Shown here: positions 38,359 through 54,020 of the stretch, piece by piece
How the letters are laid out: each line of letters starts with the position of its first letter
How positions within the stretch are numbered: the first letter of the stretch is position 1
Assembly (NCBI GenBank): GCA_963718405.1
Contig: CAVQYZ010000004.1
Coordinates: 66,798 to 130,797, forward strand
Reading direction: 5' to 3'
Length of the DNA stretch: 64,000 bases
Source of the DNA: an uncultured Acidimicrobiaceae bacterium
GTDB lineage: Bacteria; Actinomycetota; Acidimicrobiia; Acidimicrobiales; RAAP-2
Made by a program: the position numbers and the translations under genes
The notes under the pieces: model-generated
What the model saw: the letters and a program-made list of their open reading frames with translations, nothing else
Databases searched by the model: none
What the model was told of the DNA's origin: nothing

Positions 38359-39372
38359 ATGCCACAAGACGATGCGAAGCCGGAAACAATCACATTCGAG
38401 ACATACGCCGCCGAGTGGATTCACTCGCGCATCGACCTTGCCGAACGGACCATCGAGCTCTACCGCTGGTTACTCGAGCGGCATATCGAGCCGACGTTCG
38501 GTAGCAGACCTCTCGACGACATCTCGCCGTCAGACGTGCGTGCGTGGCACGCCGAGTCAGCCCGAAAGCACCCGACGACGGCAGCGAAGGCCTACCGGCT
38601 CCTCTCGTCGGTCATGCGCACCGCGGTGTCCGACGAGATCATCCGGCGCAATCCCTGCCAGGTACGTGGTGCGGCCGTTGAGCGGGCGCCGGAGCGCCCG
38701 ATCGCCAGCATCGCCGAGGTCGATGCGCTGGCGGACGCCATGCCACCCAATCTGCACATAGCAGTGATGCTGGCGGCTTGGTGTCAGCTCCGACGAGGTG
38801 AGGTGAGGGGACTACGACGGCGAGATGTCGATTTCGAGAGCGGAACGTTGCAGATCAACATCACAAGGACAGCGGCCATGTCGGGTCGATCGATCATCAA
38901 GGAGCCGAAGACTCGAGCGGGTCGGCGTACCGTAGCTATCCCACCGAACATTCTCGAGGGCCTGAAGCACCACATGGACCGGTACGTCGGTGAGTCACTC
39001 GATGCCTTTGTTGTTGAGGGGTCCAATCGGTCACTCAGCGTTGCCTGGAACCAGGCTCGTTCGAAGCTCGACCTCACTGGACTCCGGTTCCACGACCTCA
39101 GACACTCCGGTCTCACGTGGTCAGCGGCGACCGGGGCGAGCATTGCCGAGTTGATGCGACGGGCGGGGCATGCCTCCCAGGCTGCGGCCATGCGGTACCA
39201 ACATGCCACTGACGATCGTGACCGGGTGCTGGCTCACGCACTGGCCGAATTGGCTGATCGGGCCGGAGGGAGGCATGAACTCCGAGAGCAGGATCGTTCA
39301 GTGGAACACGAGGGCTCTTCGGACCTCGGTCTGGGTGACTCGACGCCGCCCGCCCGGATCTCGCTAACGTGA
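38359..39372 (+). CDS. tyrosine-type site-specific recombinase / integrase
   Basis: SAM-like N-domain (YRWLLERHIEPTFG). Catalytic region LRRGEV (Arg I), FHDLRHSGLTW (H-x-x-R), GHASQAAAMRYQH (His/Tyr). Confidence 0.9.
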   Translation: MPQDDAKPETITFETYAAEWIHSRIDLAERTIELYRWLLERHIEPTFGSRPLDDISPSDVRAWHAESARKHPTTAAKAYRLLSSVMRTAVSDEIIRRNPCQVRGAAVERAPERPIASIAEVDALADAMPPNLHIAVMLAAWCQLRRGEVRGLRRRDVDFESGTLQINITRTAAMSGRSIIKEPKTRAGRRTVAIPPNILEGLKHHMDRYVGESLDAFVVEGSNRSLSVAWNQARSKLDLTGLRFHDLRHSGLTWSAATGASIAELMRRAGHASQAAAMRYQHATDDRDRVLAHALAELADRAGGRHELREQDRSVEHEGSSDLGLGDSTPPARISLT

Positions 39373-39387
39373 CCCAATCCAATCGGT

Positions 39388-39426
39388 ATACACCAATGGT
39401 ACACGTTACGTGTATGATTGGTGTAT
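39388..39426 (+). promoter_or_regulatory. nested inverted repeats upstream of and overlapping the vapB start (candidate autoregulatory operator)
   Basis: Outer arms ATACACC (39388-94) / GGTGTAT (39420-26). Inner arms TACACG-tta-CGTGTA (39400-39414). Confidence 0.35.
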
Positions 39427-39634
39427 GAGCCGAATGAGAACGAACATCGAAATCGAGGACACCCACCTCCGGATCATCATGAACCGCTACGGCGTGCACA
39501 CCAAGACCGAGGCTGTCGACCTCGCGCTGCGCCACCTGGCTGGACTACCCATGACGCGCGACGAGGCCCTGGCCATGCGTGGCGCGGGGGCGATAGGCGA
39601 GATCCCAGCTGATGCCGGACCGCCCGAATGGTGA
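39425..39634 (+). CDS. vapB: type II antitoxin, VapB family
   Basis: MRTNIEIEDTHLRIIMNRYGVHTKTEAVDLALRHL. The 3' end overlaps vapC by 7 nt. Confidence 0.75.
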   Translation: MSRMRTNIEIEDTHLRIIMNRYGVHTKTEAVDLALRHLAGLPMTRDEALAMRGAGAIGEIPADAGPPEW

Positions 39635-40041
39635 TCCTGGCGGATACCTCCGCATGGGTGGAGTTTGACCGTGCCACTGGAAGCAAGGTCGACGGACGGC
39701 TCACCGCGCTCATCAGAGATGGTGGACCGTTGGCGGTCACTGAGCCGGTGATCATGGAGGTGATGGCCGGCGCCCGATCCGACGATCGGGAGAACGAGTT
39801 GCGACGCCTACTCCTGCGATTCGATCTGCTCAGGTTTGATGCCCTGGCCGATTTTGACGCCGCCGCAAGGATCTATCGGACGTGCCGCAGGGCGGGCATC
39901 ACCCCTCGTGGCATGGTCGACTGCCTGATCGCCTCGGTCGCCCACCGGCATGGAGCATCGTTGCTGGCAGCTGATGCTGACCTCGGGCGTGTCGCCGGCA
40001 TGGTGGGGATCAACCTGGACGAGGCGTCCACCACTGCCTGA
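39628..40041 (+). CDS. vapC: type II toxin, PIN-domain ribonuclease VapC
   Basis: MVILADTSAWVEF (Asp), EPVIMEV (Glu), VDCLIASVA (Asp), LLAADADL (Asp). Confidence 0.85.
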   Translation: MVILADTSAWVEFDRATGSKVDGRLTALIRDGGPLAVTEPVIMEVMAGARSDDRENELRRLLLRFDLLRFDALADFDAAARIYRTCRRAGITPRGMVDCLIASVAHRHGASLLAADADLGRVAGMVGINLDEASTTA

Positions 40042-40228
40042 CGAAGGCATCAGTTGTCATGACCTCAGCCGATGCCACTCAGGAAGGTCGACTTCGGCTC
40101 GCATGTCTGATGCACAACCTGCCATTGGGATATTGGACCCAGTGGCGGGACGAAGCCGAGAACTCAGTGGCCGAGATCGTCGGACGGAATCAGGAACCCA
40201 CGATACGGAATCTAGTATCATAAGCGCA

Positions 40229-40849
40229 ATGGACGGAAAGTCGGCTGCGAGCAGGCTCTTGCGGGATCTCCGACGCCGTGCCGGACTAACCCAGCGCGCC
40301 CTGGCGGCCAAGGGTGGCGTTCCCCAACCAACCATTGCCGAGATAGAAGCCGGGCGACGAGAACCATCCATAACCCTTCTAGGTCGGCTGGCCGAAGCGA
40401 CCGGCTACGAGCTGAAGTTGGAACTCCAACCCCTTCACCCTCGGAGTGCAGTTGCCACCGCCAACCGCATTCGTGACCGGCTGACCGAGGCGGATGCTGA
40501 AGGCTGGTCGACGGCGCAGCAGGAGGACGCGGCCTTGCGGGCGGCCATTGACTTCAAGGATGCGCTTTCCTCCGCACGTGCCGACGAGTTCACCCACCTT
40601 GTCAACACTCCTCCGGGTACGACCGGTGACACACGCTGGGACGCGTTCATTGCCGCGGTGGTCGAGGACGAAGCGGCCACTCGGTCCGTACCGGCTCCAC
40701 GTTGGACTGGTGAGAGGAGCCGGTTCACTCGACCCCTCTGGTATCTATCTAAGAACAAAGCTCTCCATAACTGGGAGCTGGCCACATCGCCAGGCGCATT
40801 CGTCCGTCACGGAGTTGTTGCCGCTAAGGAAGAACTCGAGAGCGTCTGA
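40229..40849 (+). CDS. XRE-family HTH protein with a C-terminal domain of unknown function
   Basis: LRDLRRRAGLTQRALAAKGGVPQPTIAEIEAGRREPSITLLGRLAEATG, followed by a tail of about 140 aa. The stop overlaps the next start (TGATG). Confidence 0.7.
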   Translation: MDGKSAASRLLRDLRRRAGLTQRALAAKGGVPQPTIAEIEAGRREPSITLLGRLAEATGYELKLELQPLHPRSAVATANRIRDRLTEADAEGWSTAQQEDAALRAAIDFKDALSSARADEFTHLVNTPPGTTGDTRWDAFIAAVVEDEAATRSVPAPRWTGERSRFTRPLWYLSKNKALHNWELATSPGAFVRHGVVAAKEELESV

Positions 40850-41367
40850 TGGATCGAGACGAGATCGAAGGCGCTCTCCGTGAGCTCGCCGAGGAGTTGG
40901 ACGAACGGGGCATCGTCGCACGGATCTACCTCGTCGGGGGTGCCGCCATGGTTCTGGCTTATCAGTCGAGGTTCTCGACCGATGACGTGGACGCGTCCGG
41001 CTACCCGACCGATGAGGTACTGGCTGTATCTCTGGATGTCGCCGAACGGCGAGGTCTGAGACCCAACTGGCTCGACGACTCTGTGAAGGTGTACATCCCG
41101 GTGGCCAGCGAGCCCGAATGGAGGCCGGTCATCAAAGTGGGAAGCGTCGAAATCGTCGTGGCTGATGAGCGCACACTTTTGGCCATGAAGTTGCGTGCAA
41201 GTAGGGGGAGGCGGGATGAAGCGGACATAGAGTTCCTGCTTGACAAGTGCCGGATCGCTTCGATCGACGAGGCGCTAGCACTGTACGAGGAGTATTTCCC
41301 GGAGGATGCCCTTCCTCCCCGGGCGATCCCTATCCTCCGTCATGCACTGGGCGAGTTGGGCAACTAG
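40849..41367 (+). CDS. minimal nucleotidyltransferase-fold protein (DUF6036 / AbiEii-like)
   Basis: Pol-beta NTase signature LVGGAAMVLAYQSRFSTDDVDA (GG...DxD). Size 172 aa. Confidence 0.6.
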   Translation: MDRDEIEGALRELAEELDERGIVARIYLVGGAAMVLAYQSRFSTDDVDASGYPTDEVLAVSLDVAERRGLRPNWLDDSVKVYIPVASEPEWRPVIKVGSVEIVVADERTLLAMKLRASRGRRDEADIEFLLDKCRIASIDEALALYEEYFPEDALPPRAIPILRHALGELGN

Positions 41368-45872: not shown

Positions 45873-48800
45873 ATGTCGGGAAGAATCCGGAGGGCCGGTG
45901 CAGTGCTGGGGTCGCTGCTATGCCTGATATCGGTCACCGCGGTAACGGTCGTAGCGGGGTCGGTGGACGCGCACGCCCAGGGCACATCCCAACTCGACCT
46001 GAAGGTATTGCTGATCGGGGAGAGCAGTAGCGACCCGGTCACCCAGGCCTGGGAGAACCAGTTGACCACCGAGGGCGTCCCCTACACCTTGGTCCTCCCC
46101 GGACCCAACGATTCAGCCTCAATCACCCTGCCTCCGCTGGTGGATCCGAACAACCCTGAGCACGGCTACTACGACGGAGTTGTTCAGATCCCCTCGATCT
46201 ACCAGTTCGCCTGGGGAACGCTTTATCCGGTCTTCAGCTACGAGAGTGAGTTTGGCATCCGTCAGATTGACGGGTATGTCTACCCCGTGGCGGCCATCCA
46301 GGGGATCACGCCCGACGGCGGCGCCTCCAATGAACTGGGGTCGACCACCGCCACCCTGACGGCAGACGGCCTGGCTGCCTTCCCGGCCCTGGCCGGCCCC
46401 GTTCCGCTCGATGCCGACAGCTACGGGTATCCCTCGACCGTCGACGCCAGCAATGGAGACACAGTTACCCCCCTTCTCCAGACCGCAGGCGGCGACACCC
46501 TGATGGCCCTCGACCAGCACGGGCCGAACAGCGTCACCGGCCAGGACAACGTGAGCGAGCTCTCCATCACCTTCGACTACAACAGCACCTACAGCTCGTG
46601 GCTCGTACTCGCCCCGAGTCTGATCGACTGGGTGACCGACGGCGTCCACCTCGGCTGATCGCGCAACTACGTCGAGATGGACATCGACGACACTTTCACG
46701 CCCGATGACGCCTGGAGCACCGCCACCCACTCCAACGACTACACCGACGCCGACGCGCTGCGGATGCAGCCGGCCGACGTCGTCAACGCCGCCCAGTGGT
46801 CGCAGGCCAACGACTTCCGGATGGACCAGCTGTTCAACGGCGGCGGCAGCGTGGCCTACCAGGCCGACGGGGATGGCGTCGCCCCGGCCGGCCCGGATCC
46901 CGCTGCTGGCCGAGTTCCAGGCGACCGATCCCACCACCGGCAAGCCCTACGCCGACGACTTCGGCTGGATCAGCCACACCTACGACACGCCCGTATCTGG
47001 ACGTGGGCTGCGCGACCCAGAACTACATCGAGGCCGAGCTCAACGAGAACACCAACTGGGCGGCGGCCGCCCCGGGAGCAACGCCGGGGACCGGCGGCCT
47101 CGGGCTGACCGAGATCGACGACACCAGCGATGCTCTCGGCGCCGAGAACCCCCAGGTCTTCGTGCCCGGCAACCACTCGGGCCTCGCCGACCTGGTGCCC
47201 GGGAACCCGGCGACGGTCGATCCGCCCGATCTCGACCCGGAGACCGTGAACGCCGACGGCGGGACGCTGGCTGCCGGCACCTACCAGTACGCGGTCACCG
47301 ACCAGTTCAAGGCGCCGACTCCCCGAGCGCCGACCAGTCGGCCGGCGTATGTCACCGCGCCCATCGACGGTGCCCGCCGGCGGCTCGGTGTCGCTGGTCT
47401 GGCAGGCCATCTGCCATGCGGCCAACTACCTGATCTACCGGGAGGTCGCCGGCACGAACAACTGGTCGCTGATCGGCAACCTGCGCCACCCCGTCCTCGG
47501 CCACCCTGCCCGACAACAGCTCCGGTGAACCCGGCCTCGACCACCGACGTGACCGGCGGCGGTGAGCTCGAGCTGACCTTCACCGACACCGGCACCGCCG
47601 GCACGGCAGAGCACGCAGGCTGGACTCCGCCGACCGTCCGAGAACGCCAACGAGTCCCCTGGGAGCAGAACCCCTACTTCATCCCCGCCCTCGAGGCGGT
47701 CGGGATCACCGCGGTCGGGCGACGACGCCTCCAAGGCCTACCCCGATCCGCCCGACGACGCAGTTCGGGATCGGGACCACCTACACCGGGGCCGAGTACC
47801 CGGCCGGGACAACCTTCCTCGACGGCACAGCCCAGGTCGTGCCCCGCCACCCGATCAACATCTACTACAACGTCTCGACCGAGGCCCAGGAGGTCGACGA
47901 GTACAACACGCTCTACCTGGCTGTCGCCGACGGCGGTGGACTGCGTCGACACGCTCGACCACGACCTGTCGGACCACGCCGGCGACCTTCGCCGACATCG
48001 TGAACAGCGTCGTCTCGGGCATGTTCCAGAACATGTTGAGCAACGACCCGCGAGCCGAGCTACGTCCACCAGACCAACATCATGGGCGAGCCTCCGCCCG
48101 GGACCGACCGACCTCAGGCACCCCGCCGAGCCACGCCCGACACGACCGGTGACGGGCTGCTCTACTCGGTGCTCAACCCGCTGCTGGCCGAGTACAGCAG
48201 CGAGTTCACTGGTCTAGCGCCCTACCAGCAGGCCACCTTGGGCCAGATCGGCGCTATCGAGAGAGAGAAGACTGCGTGGGCCGCGGCCGTGGCCGCGGGC
48301 ACGGTGACCGCGTCCGAACAGGGTGGTGTAATCAGCGTGACCAACAACAGCTCGACGTCCCTCGAGGTGCCCCTGAGCGCACCGCTCGGTTCGACGATCC
48401 ACGACAAATCTGTGGGGTCGCAGTACGGGTCCACCACCTCGGGCTGGGAGTCGGTGGCCCCTGGTGGCACGCTGACCGCGTACACGGTACCGACCGCGCC
48501 CGCCATCACCAGCGGTGACTCGGTGACGGCCACTGCCGGGTCGCCGCTCTTCTTCGAGGTGACCACCACCGGGGCCCCAGACCCCGGGCTCACGGAGGCC
48601 GGCCGCCTGCCGGCCGGGATCACCTTCACCCAAGGCGGGCAAGGCACGGCCGTGCTGAGCGGCGTGGCTGCGTCCGGCTCCGGTGGCGTCTATCACTTCA
48701 CCATCACCGCCGATAACGGCGTTGGGTCGGCCGTCGTCCAGGATTTCACGCTGACCGTCAATGCGGCCCCGAGGTTCGTGTCAGCAGCCAGTACGAGCTT

Positions 48801-49293
48801 CACCCTCGGCCATACCCGTTCGTTCGAGGTGGTGGCCCACGGGTATCCGACACCGACGATGTCCACCGAGGGCGTCCTCCCTGCGGGCCTCTCATTCAGC
48901 GCCGGCCCCGATGGCACCGCCACCCTCCACGGTAGTCCGACCAGGACGGGCAAGAGCACCTTCACGGTGGTGGCCACCAACCCGGTCGGCATAGCCCACC
49001 AGACCTTGAACGTGAACGTTGTGAGCCTGCCCACGGTCAAGGTCGCCACCGGAGTGACGGCCTCAGTCGGACGGGCACTGCTAGTAGTGGCGACAACGGG
49101 AGGGGTACCGGCTCCGACCCTCACCGAGTCGGGCGCCCTGCCTGCTGGAATTGTCTACAAGTTCCGGGCCGGACGTGGAGAGCTCACAGGCGTCCCCGCT
49201 CGCGGATCGGAAGGCACCTACACGGTGACGTTCACCGCCACCAATTTGGCGGGCCGGACCACGGCGAAGATGACGCTGACCGTCAATAGTTGA
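45873..49293 (+). pseudogene. giant secreted protein gene, decayed: signal peptide, possible metal-dependent polysaccharide-deacetylase-like core, three He_PIG-type Ig-like repeats
   Basis: AGGAGG plus ATG at 45873. Signal AGAVLGSLLCLISVTAVTVVAGSVDAHA. In-frame TGA at 46656. The sequence then hops frames (near 46880, 46990, 47310, 47450, 47740, 47950, 48060 and others). The last 400 aa (48082-49293) are intact, with LPAG(I/L)(T/S)F...G.LSG.P...GTYT.T repeats. Confidence 0.7.
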
Positions 49294-49736: not shown

Positions 49737-51252
49737 TCACGTCGTTGCGAGAACTCGTTCCCGCCACCGTCGAAGGCTCATAACATCAAACCGCTCTCCC
49801 TCGAACGCAATAGACTTCACCGGCCACTCCCCTTGAGATCGACGCTGACGCAGCAGATCCCGAACCTCCATCCACTCAATGGACCCGGAGGAATCTCGGA
49901 TGACCAGCATGACAGGATATGCCTGATCTGCCCAGTAGTCTCCATGCCGAGATTACTGATTCGAAGAAGTTCGAAGGTCCTGGTCTTTCGAGATTTAAGG
50001 TGTGAGCGCCGGACTTAATTGAAGGTACAGCCTCTCTCCTGTGGCTTGTCCCGCATCATTTTTGAACTTATCTTCCATATCGATCCCCCAGTCGCTTACC
50101 GTTACCTCCTTGCTAGCTGATTCGCTCGGGCAGCAACCGCAACAACCTCGCCCACGAGTATGCGCTCTTTGCTCTCCGTATCTAGAACCACCTGCGCCGC
50201 TTCGCGGAGGGCCTCGACCTGGGCTCTGAGTTCTGGACTGGCGAGTTGATCCTCTATCTCATCCCAAAGTGGGAATTCGATGGTCGCAGAGACCACATCC
50301 AATGTCCTGCTTGCCGTCCAGAAGTCTTCTGAGAGCAATCTCACGATTTTCGTTTGGCGTACCACATTTGCTGCAATATCGTGCCGTAATCGCGCCCACA
50401 TTATCCGCATATTTAAGTAAATGGGTATACACGTATCGTGCAAATAAAACGCAGTCACCAATTGATGTATTGAGATCGCTATATATCTCAAGGGATCCAG
50501 TTCCATCCGACTTATGTGTGAGCCTGAGCCCGACACCAGAACCAGTTGCTGTGACAAAATCGGCAGCATTTCGCCAGATACCCTTACTGCTAAAGGGTTC
50601 CGTGTAGTGGAGTCTAGCAACGAGTGTGGCGTAGATCTCTTCAAGGGGCCCCGAAAATCGGTAGCTCACGAAATAGGCTGGCTCTCCGTTCGATCGGGCC
50701 GCTCTCTCCGAAAGTAGCTGGGGAAGACCAACAGCGTCGATCGCTTTCCATTGGGGTCCTGGTCCCTAAAGCAAATAGGGTACTCTACCAGCTGCTTATG
50801 CAAACCCAGGAGAATGATCCGCTCGTCGTCCTCTTCGACTCGTTGAAAGTCGGGTGGAAAGTTGAAACCCCCGTAAGCACCCGCTCCTCTGTAATCGAAC
50901 CCCGCTCCTTGGATCATCGTGCAAGCTTCTAATAACGGCTTGTGCATCCGAGCGCTTGAGAAGATCGGCCTTGAGCAGAATATATCCACCGAAGTCAAGA
51001 GGTAAGACAGCCCGCCGGGCCAGACAATCGAACGACCGCATCGAGTTGAGCCGGTTCGAAGGGTCCAGTAATACCAGGTAACCAATCGCCAAGCTCTTTG
51101 ACAGACGTAAGTAATCGACCGCTGTCTTTCAGCTTCATTATTTCAGCCCTGAGACGCTTGAATATCTCCGGTGTAGTGCGCCATGGGATGGCACTCCAAT
51201 CGATAGTCTCGGCAATAGCAGCTCGAAGTTCAGAACATCCGTCGGAATACAT
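49737..51252 (-). pseudogene. remnant of a large STAND/ROCO-type gene: COR-like region + Zn-ribbon + DUF4365 (PD-(D/E)xK-like) C-terminal domain
   Basis: Pieces in at least 5 frames: AIAETIDWSAIPW..FKRLRAEIMKLK; ILLGLHKQLVEYPICF..STLLVFPSYFRRERPD; SYRFSGPLEEIYATLVARLHY..GIWRNAADF; CSKCG...CGLCDHRIP; DWGIDMEDKFKNDAGQATGERLYLQL; DYWADQAYPVMLVIRDSSGSIEWMEVRDLL...IAFEGERFD, ending at the TGA at 49737. Confidence 0.5.
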
Positions 51253-51415
51253 TTACCAGCGAATAGGTGAAGTAGTCCCGGCTAGTGACAAATCTGAGTT
51301 GAATAGATTGACTTGATGCAGCGCTCAAAAGAATGACCGGGCGAATGTTCGACATTACGGATCGTCCGACGAGTTTTGTCTTGCACACGAAGAGCGATCC
51401 CGGCTTGCTTCACGT

Positions 51416-52799
51416 TTGATCGAACTAGAGAACCTCGATACGCGCCTGCATGACGAACTATTACAAGTCATCTCAGAGTCCGCTTCTGCACTTGAGATCG
51501 AACTTCCTTTCAATGTCCTCGAAATGACGTCGAGAGTGCGGCGACTGGTCGAAAAAGTGTTACTCGAACGTGGCGAATCCTTTGTCGCAGCGGTTCAGTC
51601 GGGGTCGCTTGCCCTTTGCAATCAGGATGAATTGCGTGAACTGGTTGTGGACGATCTTGGAAATCATGGAGGCATCACCGGGAACCAGGCCGACTATGTA
51701 ATCCTCGTTCTTACCGCACTCCAGAATGTCCTTCTTCACCCGACCGAGGAAGTCTCAAATATCTGGAGAAGCCTCTCCAACTCATACACTCTCTTCTCAC
51801 TGGTGCGCGCTACCCCAAATGTTCAGAAGGCACTTGTGAAGATTTACTCAGGTGGAGAAATATGGCTTGACACCTCGGCGGTCCTTCCATTGTTTGGTGA
51901 GCGCTTGGTGCCAGTGGAAGAACGACGATTCTCCACAATTGTTCTGGCCGCGCAATCAGCTGGAGTGACATTTCATGTCACTCCAGGTGTCACTGAGGAG
52001 TTGGAGCGCCACATAAATCGGTGTTTGATATTTCGGTCGATACCTAGATGGGAAGGGCAGGTTCCGTTTTTGTATACCGAGTTCATCAAGAACGGCGGAC
52101 GACCTGTCGGTTTGCCGGGTGGATAAGAAATGCCGCGGTGCAATCCGACCGGTCGATGACTTGCAGAGTATTTGGCCGATGAACTCCGCATTACGGAGAT
52201 ATCGCTCGCTGATGATGCTAACAGTGCCACCGACGACTTGAGATTCGCGGTGAAAGAAATGTGGACCGAAGTTCAAGATCAAAGAAGATCACGATCCCAC
52301 GGCGGAATCGATCCGGTGGTTGCACTGAGACTTGCCGAACACGACACTGAGAACTACGTGGGCGTGCTCGCAGAGACGTAGACAACGACGAGATGGGCCA
52401 TTCGAATACGACAAGTTCGTGGCTCATATTGATCGTAAAGCCTTCGGAATGCACCGGAAGCTGGCAGATCACTTGGGCTGCCCACCTATCGCATCACCTG
52501 TATTAAGTCCAGATTTCCTTGCTAACTATCTAGCGATAGGTCCCATAAGGGAACACATTGATAAGGGCATCGAGGCAACATTGCCACTCATGGTTGATGT
52601 TGGCCTGCTTGATGCCGTTCCCGAGGAAGTTCTAAGTGCGGCCGAAACTGCTCGCAGCGAGTTCGATGGCTTGGCACCGAGAGTCTTGAGGCGGCGCATC
52701 CGAGATCGCATTGATCTCGACAAACAAATGCTTGCCTCAGGTGCATCTTCGGAAAATGATGATGGATCAGGAGACGAAGAGTTGATAGCAGCGACCTAG
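51416..52799 (+). pseudogene. hypothetical protein with a PIN-like core; 5' end unclear, at least 3 frame or stop disruptions
   Basis: GEIWLDTSAVLPLF...VTFHVTPGVTEELERH (PIN-like acidic motif). TAA at 52124 and TGA about 30 nt later. Continues as LAEYLADELRITEISL...HDTENYVGVLAE, then frame-shifts to PFEYDKFVAHIDRKAFGMHRKL... Confidence 0.45.
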
Positions 52800-52900: not shown

Positions 52901-53658
52901 TCAGAGGCGGAAGTCGCTCTTCTTCAGGACCGATATTCGGGATTCGAGAAATCGAATCGTCGTCCCGGCATCCCATTCTCGGCGCTGATTTCCGTAAGCA
53001 GGAAAGCCGCCAGCAGCCTTGAGCATGCCGGCGAGATGGAGGAGATTCCAAGTCATGAAGGTGGTATTGCGATTGGTGAATTCGTTCTCCACTCCCACCC
53101 GACTGCCATCCTCAAGTTCGTCCCCGTAGCTAGGACCTGGTCCGGCCTCTCCGATCCATCCGGCGTCTGACTGGGGTGCGATCGAGTACCGATGTGCTGA
53201 AGGCTGTAGAGAACATTCGAAGCGCAGTGCTTGATACCGTCCTCGTTTCCCGTAATCAGGCATCCTCCGACTTTGCCGTAGTAGAGCCATTGGCCCTTGT
53301 CGTTGAGCTCACCGGAGTGGGCATAGAGCCGTTCGATCACCTTCTTGGTCTCGCTGCTGTTGTCGCCAAGCCAAATCGGGCCGCCGATGACGAGGATGTC
53401 CGCGGACATCACCCTTCCGAAGAGCTGAGGCCATTCGTCCTTCGCCCAACCGTGTTCACACATATCGGGATACACGCCTGTGGCGATGGCGTGGTCGACG
53501 GAGCGGAATTGGTCGACCGTACACCTTGCTTGGCCATGATTGCTGCGCTGACGTCAATCAGGCGCTGCGTGTGGCTCAGCTCCGGCGACCGTGTCAGTGT
53601 CGTGTTGATGAATAGCGCTGCGAGGCTCGAAAAATCTGTGTGGCCAGTCGGTGTCCAT
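52901..53658 (-). pseudogene. flavodoxin-like-fold NAD(P)H-dependent FMN reductase, two frame breaks
   Basis: ALFINTTLTRSPELSHTQRLI / ADILVIGGPIWLGDNSSETKKVIERLY...GKVGGCLITGNEDG / PQSDAGWIGEAGPGPSYGDE...NTTFMTWNLLHLAGMLK, in three frames. Confidence 0.6.
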
Positions 53659-54020
53659 GGAAATGCAGTCCTCCGATCACTGTTGGTGTTACAGAGCATT
53701 GCCGATTGAGTGCCCCCAGGTGTTGATGCTGGCACCAGCCCCCCCGCATAGAGACGCCAGTTGTGTGTAGGAATAAACGCTGCGCATTGACCGTCGTGGG
53801 CGTAGGTCGTGAGCCGGGTTAGCTGAGGACCCTTGTTTCCCTGCAGATCAATTGTCCGGGCAGTCGCCGTGTACCGCGTACCCATCGAAATGGCGGCGTA
53901 GAGACTGAGGATGGACGTGCCCGAACGTTGATGCTCAGACTCGCTCTGGCCTAGGGCTGATCCAAACCCAAGCGCTTCGCTAGTGTTGACAAACGGAAAG
54001 GCGACTAGGAGGAATCGGCA

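Follow-up and report, generated by a model that had tools for sequence, protein, structure and literature searches.

Introduction

Proteins that combine an AP-GTPase and a COR domain with variable repeats and effector domains have been predicted to serve a counter-invader function (Kaur, Iyer, Burroughs, Aravind, eLife 2021, PMC8195603). The present analysis deals with a related locus of an uncultured Acidimicrobiaceae bacterium (assembly GCA_963718405.1, contig CAVQYZ010000004.1, positions 66,798 to 130,797). This whole 64,000-nucleotide stretch is referred to as the window, and all positions below are counted from its first letter. On the minus strand, between about 49.7 and 51.3 kb, the window carries a broken gene which is a truncated copy of a computationally known family. 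The locus very probably represents the 3′ ~1.5 kb, about the last third, of a Roc-COR GTPase gene ending in a SPARDA-type nuclease domain.

This gene ends in the effector domain DUF4365, a PD-(D/E)XK enzyme known as the DREN nuclease in SPARDA and TmuRE-Ago. Residues D41, Q60 and K62 of NbaSPARDA and Q62 and K64 of the Tmu protein are needed for its indiscriminate cleavage of DNA and RNA. In SPARDA, DREN alone is monomeric and inactive, and it is switched on by tetramerisation within a filament.

Comparison with Described Systems

Members of the family already appear in Kaur et al. (PMC8195603), whose source data give them the architecture 'TIR+BetaPropeller+AP-GTPase' and the NCBI name 'DUF4365 domain-containing protein'. 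The architecture strings given there for these members end at the AP-GTPase, and the zinc ribbon and the DUF4365 tail are not recorded in them. Like the proteins of the AP-GTPase+COR scheme, the intact relatives of the window gene unite on one polypeptide N-terminal repeats that vary rapidly, an AP-GTPase/Roc domain plus COR, and an effector that differs between proteins. The sensors described in the text of that article are leucine-rich repeats (LRR), and GT4, TIR, caspase and trypsin are among the C-terminal effectors that it names. Compared with this scheme, the window copy keeps just the COR region and one effector, without the repeats and the GTPase. The original prediction, made from the sequence of the window, had considered the architecture to be unstudied. 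As a predicted architecture, it is recorded in the source data mentioned above, and work on SPARDA has covered its DUF4365 nuclease.

The Roc-COR part of the relatives superposes on the Roco protein of Chlorobium tepidum (CtRoco) and on human LRRK1/LRRK2 (3dpu, 3dpt, 6hlu, 8e05, 8fo9) over ~500 columns with a Foldseek E of ~1e-19. However, the sequence identity to these proteins is 12–17%, and the G4 motif of the family is [AG]RxD, not NKxD. The TM-scores (template modelling scores) are modest (0.40–0.53), with differences in the COR-A/COR-B hinge probably being the cause. The partner domains also differ, being TIR, WD40 and a nuclease instead of LRR and a kinase.

With SPARDA and TmuRE-Ago (DREN-APAZ plus short Argonaute), the family shares the effector domain PF14280, and the D...QxK active site is conserved in the relatives. 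In contrast to SPARDA, the family has neither APAZ nor Argonaute; a GTPase switch, not guide-target pairing, would activate the nuclease. The PADLOC matches of the relatives cover only profile positions ~20–125 of the Aga_REase models, i.e., the REase part.

The third system for comparison is the group of Avs and other bacterial NLR-like STAND receptors with nuclease or TIR effectors, which would follow the same logic, a single gene encoding a sensor made of repeats, an NTPase as oligomerisation switch and effectors that kill the cell. Unlike in those receptors, the NTPase of the family is a Ras-like TRAFAC GTPase with COR and not a STAND ATPase. No STAND family was matched in the relatives, the NTPase of which matches Pfam Roc, Ras and Arf, with Rab proteins as the best sequence matches in the PDB. 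The label STAND-like, used in the original prediction, is thus replaced here by that of a Ras-like Roc GTPase switch.

The Truncated Gene and Its Homology

The peptide pieces on which the original prediction was built were found on the minus strand in a stop-to-stop translation of 49.7–51.3 kb, and their homology is far beyond chance. In an exhaustive search of 1.84 billion cluster representatives, a 168-residue piece (50259–50765) had 806 matches at E ≤ 1e-3, 269 of them at E ≤ 1e-10, the best E being 3.9e-39. Using a protein-to-DNA aligner that tolerates frame changes, written for this analysis, the remnant was aligned with its nearest relative, P0008, at 56.8% identity over 495 columns, in one colinear alignment from 51240 to 49740 of the window. 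The same picture was obtained with the relative P0006 (55% identity). Eight frame changes were needed against P0008 (at ~51012, 50909, 50865, 50686, 50273, 50113, 50012 and 49954). Five minus-strand frames had been stitched together in the original prediction; with at least eight frame changes, more than five are involved. The corrected path has zero in-frame stops and reaches a stop codon at 49737–49739. Around 50375–50393, ARLRH is read in the +1 frame at the place of the family's RLR, and this short out-of-frame stretch suggests that the remnant contains further compensating indel pairs. The proposed order of a COR-like region, a zinc ribbon, a helical linker and DUF4365 matches that of the intact relatives, where Roc lies directly upstream (Table 1).

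Firm homology stops at 51243, just past the G5 motif. An ATG at 51250–51252 opens the frame of the Roc tail, with a TAA directly upstream. Beyond this point, a trace of ~30 Roc residues at 51253–51340 was not significant (z = 2.5, 1 of 60 shuffles scoring higher) and depended on the query.

At the other end of the gene, the C-terminal piece of DUF4365 matched PF14280 with 28.1 bits against a cut-off of 24.3 (E = 2.3e-6), while the N-terminal half reached 15 bits and stayed under the Pfam threshold because frame shifts split the domain. The profile check bears out the DUF4365 assignment through the C-terminal piece. The nuclease keeps the catalytic D (50081–50079) and Q (50021–50019), and the K of QxK sits within the frame break at ~50012. 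An acidic residue kept in 67 of 70 relatives is K in the remnant (E to K). Over the positions that are at least 90% conserved, the remnant retains 50 of 61, whereas the minimum among the 70 relatives is 51; a Y invariant in 70/70 relatives is among the residues lost.

Table 1. Features of the Roco-type remnant and its surroundings in the window.
Feature	Position	Strand	Remarks
Tyrosine integrase	38359–39372	plus	Upstream of the remnant
XRE-HTH (helix-turn-helix) protein, then AbiEii-like nucleotidyltransferase (toxin-antitoxin pair)	After the integrase, region 38359–41367	plus	
GC-rich (70%) secreted-protein gene	45915–47990	plus	11 frame shifts, 10 of them +1 insertions of C/G/A; one in-frame TGA at 46656
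Roco remnant	49740–51243	minus	8–9 single-base frame shifts in all; 0 in-frame stops
DUF4365/DREN-type PD-(D/E)XK nuclease domain	49740–50116	minus	PF14280 match; frame shifts ~50012, 49954
Helical linker (PLWDEIEDQLASPELRAQVEALREAAQVVLD)	50117–50269	minus	Frame shift ~50113; aligns to a single long helix, residues 489–525 of the P0006:715-1370 model
Four-cysteine zinc ribbon	50270–50381	minus	CSKC 50375–50364, CGLC 50297–50286; 4/4 Cys present; frame shift ~50273
COR-B equivalent, alpha/beta, KA1-like	50382–50707	minus	Motifs YRFSGPLEEIYATLVARL, WRNAADF; frame shift ~50686; mapped via P0006
COR-A equivalent, two winged-helix units	50708–51186	minus	Frame shifts ~51012, 50909, 50865; mapped via P0006
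Roc GTPase tail, last ~19 residues after G5 (DGCSELRAAIAETIDW)	51187–51243	minus	Aligns to ~152–171 of the Roc-to-end module of P0006 and to nine other relatives
Junction zone, possible degenerate frame-hopping trace of Roc ~125–150	51253–51340	minus	Weak matches, frames differ between relatives
Divergent neighbour gene, uncharacterised family, 5′-truncated	51341–52793	plus	Homology to P0154/L124; four frame shifts
Divergent neighbour, part counted for frame shifts	51386–52793	plus	4 frame shifts, 0 in-frame stops
FMN (flavin mononucleotide)-reductase-like gene	52927–53673	minus	4 frame shifts, all 1-nucleotide indels, two shortening G runs; 0 stops

The absence of the GTPase part, as originally supposed, was confirmed, and the TIR and WD40 parts are gone as well. 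The N-terminal parts of thirteen relatives gave no match within the window, and the Roc domains of the relatives gave none in the whole 4.49-Mb genome. Likewise, TIR, WD40 and Roc G1–G4 (P-loop, switch, G4) were not matched near the locus or elsewhere in the genome. Since both the sensor and the switch are lost, the copy is almost certainly dead.

Identity of the COR Region

Sequence profiles do not name the region between Roc and the zinc ribbon. At E ≤ 1, neither the window pieces nor the X regions of 70 relatives (0/70) matched Pfam COR, and no family-level name for the COR region was found in Pfam, PADLOC or NCBIfam. When the family profile was compared with PDB sequences, Rab GTPases dominated, and the COR region alone gave chance-level matches with no Roco entry among them.

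A different result was obtained from structure prediction. The AlphaFold2 model of P0006:715-1370, based on a 70-sequence alignment, had a mean pLDDT (predicted local distance difference test) of 92.1 and a pTM (predicted TM-score) of 0.87. The top Foldseek matches of this Roc-to-end model were 6hlu_A, 8e05_A (LRRK1), 3dpu_A and 8fo9_A (LRRK2), with 500–650 columns and E = 1.4e-19 to 4e-19. The best of them, 6hlu_A (E = 1.4e-19, 507 columns), is the LRR-Roc-COR part of C. tepidum Roco, and 3dpu_A, the CtRoco RocCOR tandem, had a Foldseek TM of 0.64 on the target. All of these top matches reach far past the ~170-residue GTPase. For the 269-residue region modelled alone (pLDDT 91.1), the 29 best Foldseek matches are all COR regions of Roco proteins (3dpu_B, E = 2.2e-9). 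An aligner other than Foldseek ranked the CtRoco COR domain first (3dpt_B, Z 12.8, 238 residues; 3dpu_B, Z 12.0). According to this aligner, the COR-A half is a tandem winged helix, corresponding to COR-A of M. barkeri Roco2 (Z 9.7, root-mean-square deviation 3.1 Å, 141 residues), and the second half is alpha/beta, as in COR-B. The COR-A part of the relatives also superposes on tandem winged-helix proteins.

Based on these models, the Pfam-blank ~270 residues that follow Roc are a true COR-A/COR-B unit by predicted fold. This assignment is one of three points that the present work adds on the family, next to its two death effectors and its cultured carriers described below. Window positions 51186–50382 are homologous to the modelled region at about 55–57% identity. 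The COR-like label of the original prediction is therefore upheld by fold (CtRoco, M. barkeri Roco2, LRRK1, LRRK2) but not by the Pfam COR profile.

Architecture and Distribution of the Intact Family

Full-length homologues, whose search had been proposed together with the original prediction, were found, among them 52 intact genome copies. The intact relatives are single genes that typically encode TIR, a WD40 propeller, a Roc GTPase, ~270 residues without a Pfam match, a CxxC..CxxC zinc ribbon, a long helix and DUF4365 in ~1125 amino acids; the modal length is ~1120–1150 amino acids. The Roc/Ras (PF08477/PF00071) and DUF4365 domains flank ~330 Pfam-blank residues, and WD40 and often TIR lie further upstream. 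WD40 was present in 52/52 intact copies and the N-terminal TIR in 45/52. The dominant form of the family thus bears two death effectors, an N-terminal TIR and a C-terminal SPARDA-type DREN nuclease. A complete Roc-to-end module of ~655 residues is common to 70 of the relatives collected.

The family is widespread: a scan of one genome per species with a 13-sequence alignment yielded 239 genomes with a confirmed relative, from phyla such as Acidobacteriota, Actinomycetota, Verrucomicrobiota, Planctomycetota, Armatimonadota and Proteobacteria. Intact members occur in two cultured strains, Magnetospirillum fulvum DSM 13234 and Undibacterium sp. RuTC16W, and these copies could be tested, which makes experiments practical. 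The member of M. fulvum has 1117 amino acids (L083, 4108–7458), and that of Undibacterium sp. has 1124 (L100, 4102–7473).

In the relatives, Roc (PF08477) was matched at E = 1e-15 to 1e-20 and DUF4365 (PF14280) with 45–74 bits at E = 1e-15 to 1e-20. The GTPase motifs G1 (GxxxxGK[ST]), G3 (DxxGQ) and G4 ([AG]RxD) are conserved in 63–68 of the 70 relatives, and all four zinc-ribbon cysteines in 68–70. Taken together with the nuclease D, E, E, Q and K, each of these features is conserved in 56–70 of 70 relatives. Judging from motif conservation, the family looks enzymatically active.

No conserved partner gene was found across 80 loci, where the largest clusters came from the family's own WD40 region, as fragments of it or as its shadows on the opposite strand. 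The two relatives whose contexts were inspected lie among housekeeping genes. Such surroundings, together with the lack of a conserved neighbour, fit a single-gene system. The family is without a model in PADLOC v2 and NCBIfam, and neither these nor Pfam gave a family-level name to the whole protein. A natural short form without Roc was considered and rejected: the nearest 'short' relative, P0008, is cut by the contig end, and its P-loop is readable upstream.

In a metagenomic variant, P0005 (1403 amino acids), the order TIR-Roc-COR-zinc ribbon-DUF4365 is extended by HEAT repeats and then a PtuA/Septu-like ABC ATPase (PADLOC E = 6e-44), so that a single chain bears three candidate effector/regulator modules.

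Proposed Mechanism of the Intact Members

The TIR effectors of bacterial immunity are activated by oligomerisation, and the oligomeric state of Roc-COR proteins cycles with the bound nucleotide. By analogy, the intact members probably act like immune receptors of the NLR/Avs type, in which a Roco GTPase would take the place of the STAND ATPase. The variable WD40 propeller would bind a ligand derived from the invader, and Roc-COR would turn this sensing into a nucleotide-dependent change of oligomeric state. This change is proposed to cluster and activate the TIR and DREN nuclease domains. Once clustered, they may deplete NAD+ (nicotinamide adenine dinucleotide) and cleave nucleic acids indiscriminately, leading to abortive infection. 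If so, bacteria would have, in this family, immune receptors whose switch is a GTPase of the LRRK2 type. Two points weigh against this proposal: its sensing and activation steps are drawn by analogy, and the housekeeping contexts described above lend it no defence-island support. The three-step model matches what Kaur et al. predicted for AP-GTPase+COR counter-invader proteins (PMC8195603).

The Divergent Neighbour and the Loss of Both 5′ Ends

The gene on the other side of the junction had been called PIN-like, but Pfam gives no PIN match for it. It is 47% identical to P0154 over 460 amino acids, with frame shifts at ~52115, 52132, 52164 and 52370 and without stops. The full-length form of P0154 on L124 (1557–3792) has ~264 more N-terminal residues, the last ~25–45 of which have a counterpart in the window; the DEFCL motif matches L124 from ~51341 on the plus strand. 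The remaining ~220 N-terminal residues of the L124 homologue have no counterpart in the window or in the genome. The family of this neighbour comprises proteins of ~745 amino acids without a Pfam match. Only two homologues were found, and there was none in 400 genomes of the phylum.

The homologies of the remnant and of the neighbour therefore face each other head to head, with both 5′ ends gone, and meet within 100 nucleotides (51243–51340). Because two unrelated genes lose their 5′ ends at one junction, the simplest reading is a single deletion of at least 2.5 kb, which took both 5′ parts and the intergenic promoters.

Origin of the Frame Shifts

The stretch of 46.6–54.1 kb contains 4–10 single-base indels per kb in four unrelated genes and almost no stops. 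For the genome as a whole, the comparison with a short-read genome of the same genus showed a frame change in 22 of 147 orthologue pairs (15%), or 0.14 per kb. The rpoB and rpoC genes are free of frame changes, and purK (at ~56350 of the window) has one, with 80% identity on both sides of the break. The frame changes in the orthologue pairs and in purK mean that the assembly holds scattered indel errors. Many genomes of the genus consist of few contigs and yet have low completeness, as would fit long-read assemblies with indel errors.

Besides the two genes at the junction, the dense stretch includes a secreted-protein gene, 64.7% identical to its G004 orthologue and located outside the low-GC block (GC, guanine plus cytosine), and an FMN-reductase-like gene. 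The latter is conserved across the order and shows 83% DNA and 88.7% protein identity to its G010 orthologue, and its indels point most clearly to consensus errors as a possible cause of the local frame breaks. Over the four genes together (~5.7 kb), the 27–28 single-base events are accompanied by no more than one stop, and the proteins show no excess divergence. The 8–9 frame shifts of the remnant do exist in the sequence as deposited. We favour the view, with some confidence, that most of the frame shifts are local consensus errors of low-coverage long reads and not mutations. An independent assembly of the sequence was looked for with an exact 26-mer and a degenerate 48-mer, neither of which had a match in the metagenome collection, and no identical protein was found for the adjacent DUF427 gene. 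The origin of the frame shifts touches the word 'remnant' but not the truncation: the status of a remnant, claimed originally, holds in that the gene is truncated, while its frame breaks may largely be assembly errors instead of decay. More generally, caution is needed in few-contig, probably long-read assemblies, where local bursts of single-base indels can mimic gene graveyards.

It is also possible, although rather unlikely, that all the frame shifts are genuine mutations and that the low-GC block of 49.3–54.6 kb is a graveyard of genes that were acquired, partly deleted and then left to decay by small indels. This explanation agrees with ours on the truncation and differs only on the origin of the frame breaks. 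Both junction genes lack their 5′ ends and would hence be free to decay, the density of frame shifts is ~40 times the genome background, and none of the 70 intact relatives lacks as many highly conserved residues as the remnant does, its losses including the invariant Y and the acidic residue of the nuclease. Moreover, an open reading frame of 403 codons with He_PIG repeats (48082–49293) lies unbroken inside the indel-dense stretch, which uniform low coverage would not predict. This open reading frame and the residue losses also weigh against consensus errors; conversely, some of the 'lost' conserved residues may stem from compensating indels, which weakens the argument from decay. However, by our codon arithmetic, neutral decay should have given several in-frame stops next to the 27–28 frame shifts, and there is one in ~5.7 kb. 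Each event is compatible with a single base. The FMN-reductase-like gene keeps its 88.7% amino acid identity despite four 1-nucleotide indels, two of them in G runs, the secreted-protein gene of 70% GC is equally affected outside the low-GC block, mostly by +1 insertions of C or G, and scattered frame changes occur in 15% of the conserved genes, including purK.

Should the frame shifts be errors, one might also propose that the open gene of ~504 codons (ATG at 51252, stop at 49737) encodes a free-standing COR-zinc ribbon-DREN protein, a nuclease module detached from its GTPase and regulated in trans or constitutively off. The ATG lies exactly where the homologous frame begins, the corrected path is free of in-frame stops, the zinc-ribbon Cys and the nuclease D and Q are intact, and the local indel density resembles sequencing error. 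We regard this as very improbable: there is no sigma-70-like promoter in 49.3–51.7 kb and no Shine-Dalgarno sequence before the ATG, no complete relative of the short form was seen (P0008 being cut by the contig end), the acidic residue and other near-invariant residues are replaced, and an isolated DREN is monomeric and inactive in SPARDA. Still less credible is that such a beheaded protein, which would couple a Roco dimerisation domain to a collateral nuclease without any sensor or GTPase, is expressed from this ATG, for example as a decoy, as a trans-acting partner of another Roco protein or as a toxin checked by the neighbouring gene. The least likely explanation is an assembly misjoin at 51.24–51.34 kb in a poorly covered region, with a real full-length gene whose 5′ part was not assembled. 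Two observations speak for it and against a deletion. The surrounding 7.5 kb have an error density near that of raw long reads, so that the head-to-head join, too, may have arisen in assembly, and the genome is 90% complete in 5 contigs, which leaves some room for a missing 5′ part. But the rest of the 4.49 Mb contains no TIR, WD40 or Roc fragment of the family, the unusual GC content of ~50% is common to the two sides of the junction, and two unrelated genes ending within 100 nucleotides fit one deletion more simply than a chimera.

Foreign Origin and Surroundings

The truncated gene was acquired horizontally, and the block around it is compositionally foreign. The remnant has a GC content of 52% and a GC content at third codon positions (GC3) of 0.37–0.57, against 67.7% GC for the genome and a GC3 of 0.78–0.88 for the neighbouring host genes. 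A search of 100 other species of the genus gave no member of the family, and 40 relatives gave no DNA match to 49.3–52.9 kb. The nearest relatives (about 55–57% identity) belong to other Actinomycetota and are GC-rich. The remnant itself is of minor importance, as one more candidate immune gene that came in by horizontal transfer and was then lost; its chief value, besides the caution on assemblies given above, lies in drawing attention to the family.

No att-like repeats were found, and the window has no transfer RNA gene. Upstream of the remnant, an integrase is followed by a toxin-antitoxin pair (Table 1), and the sequence from the integrase region to ~54.7 kb may be one integrated island.

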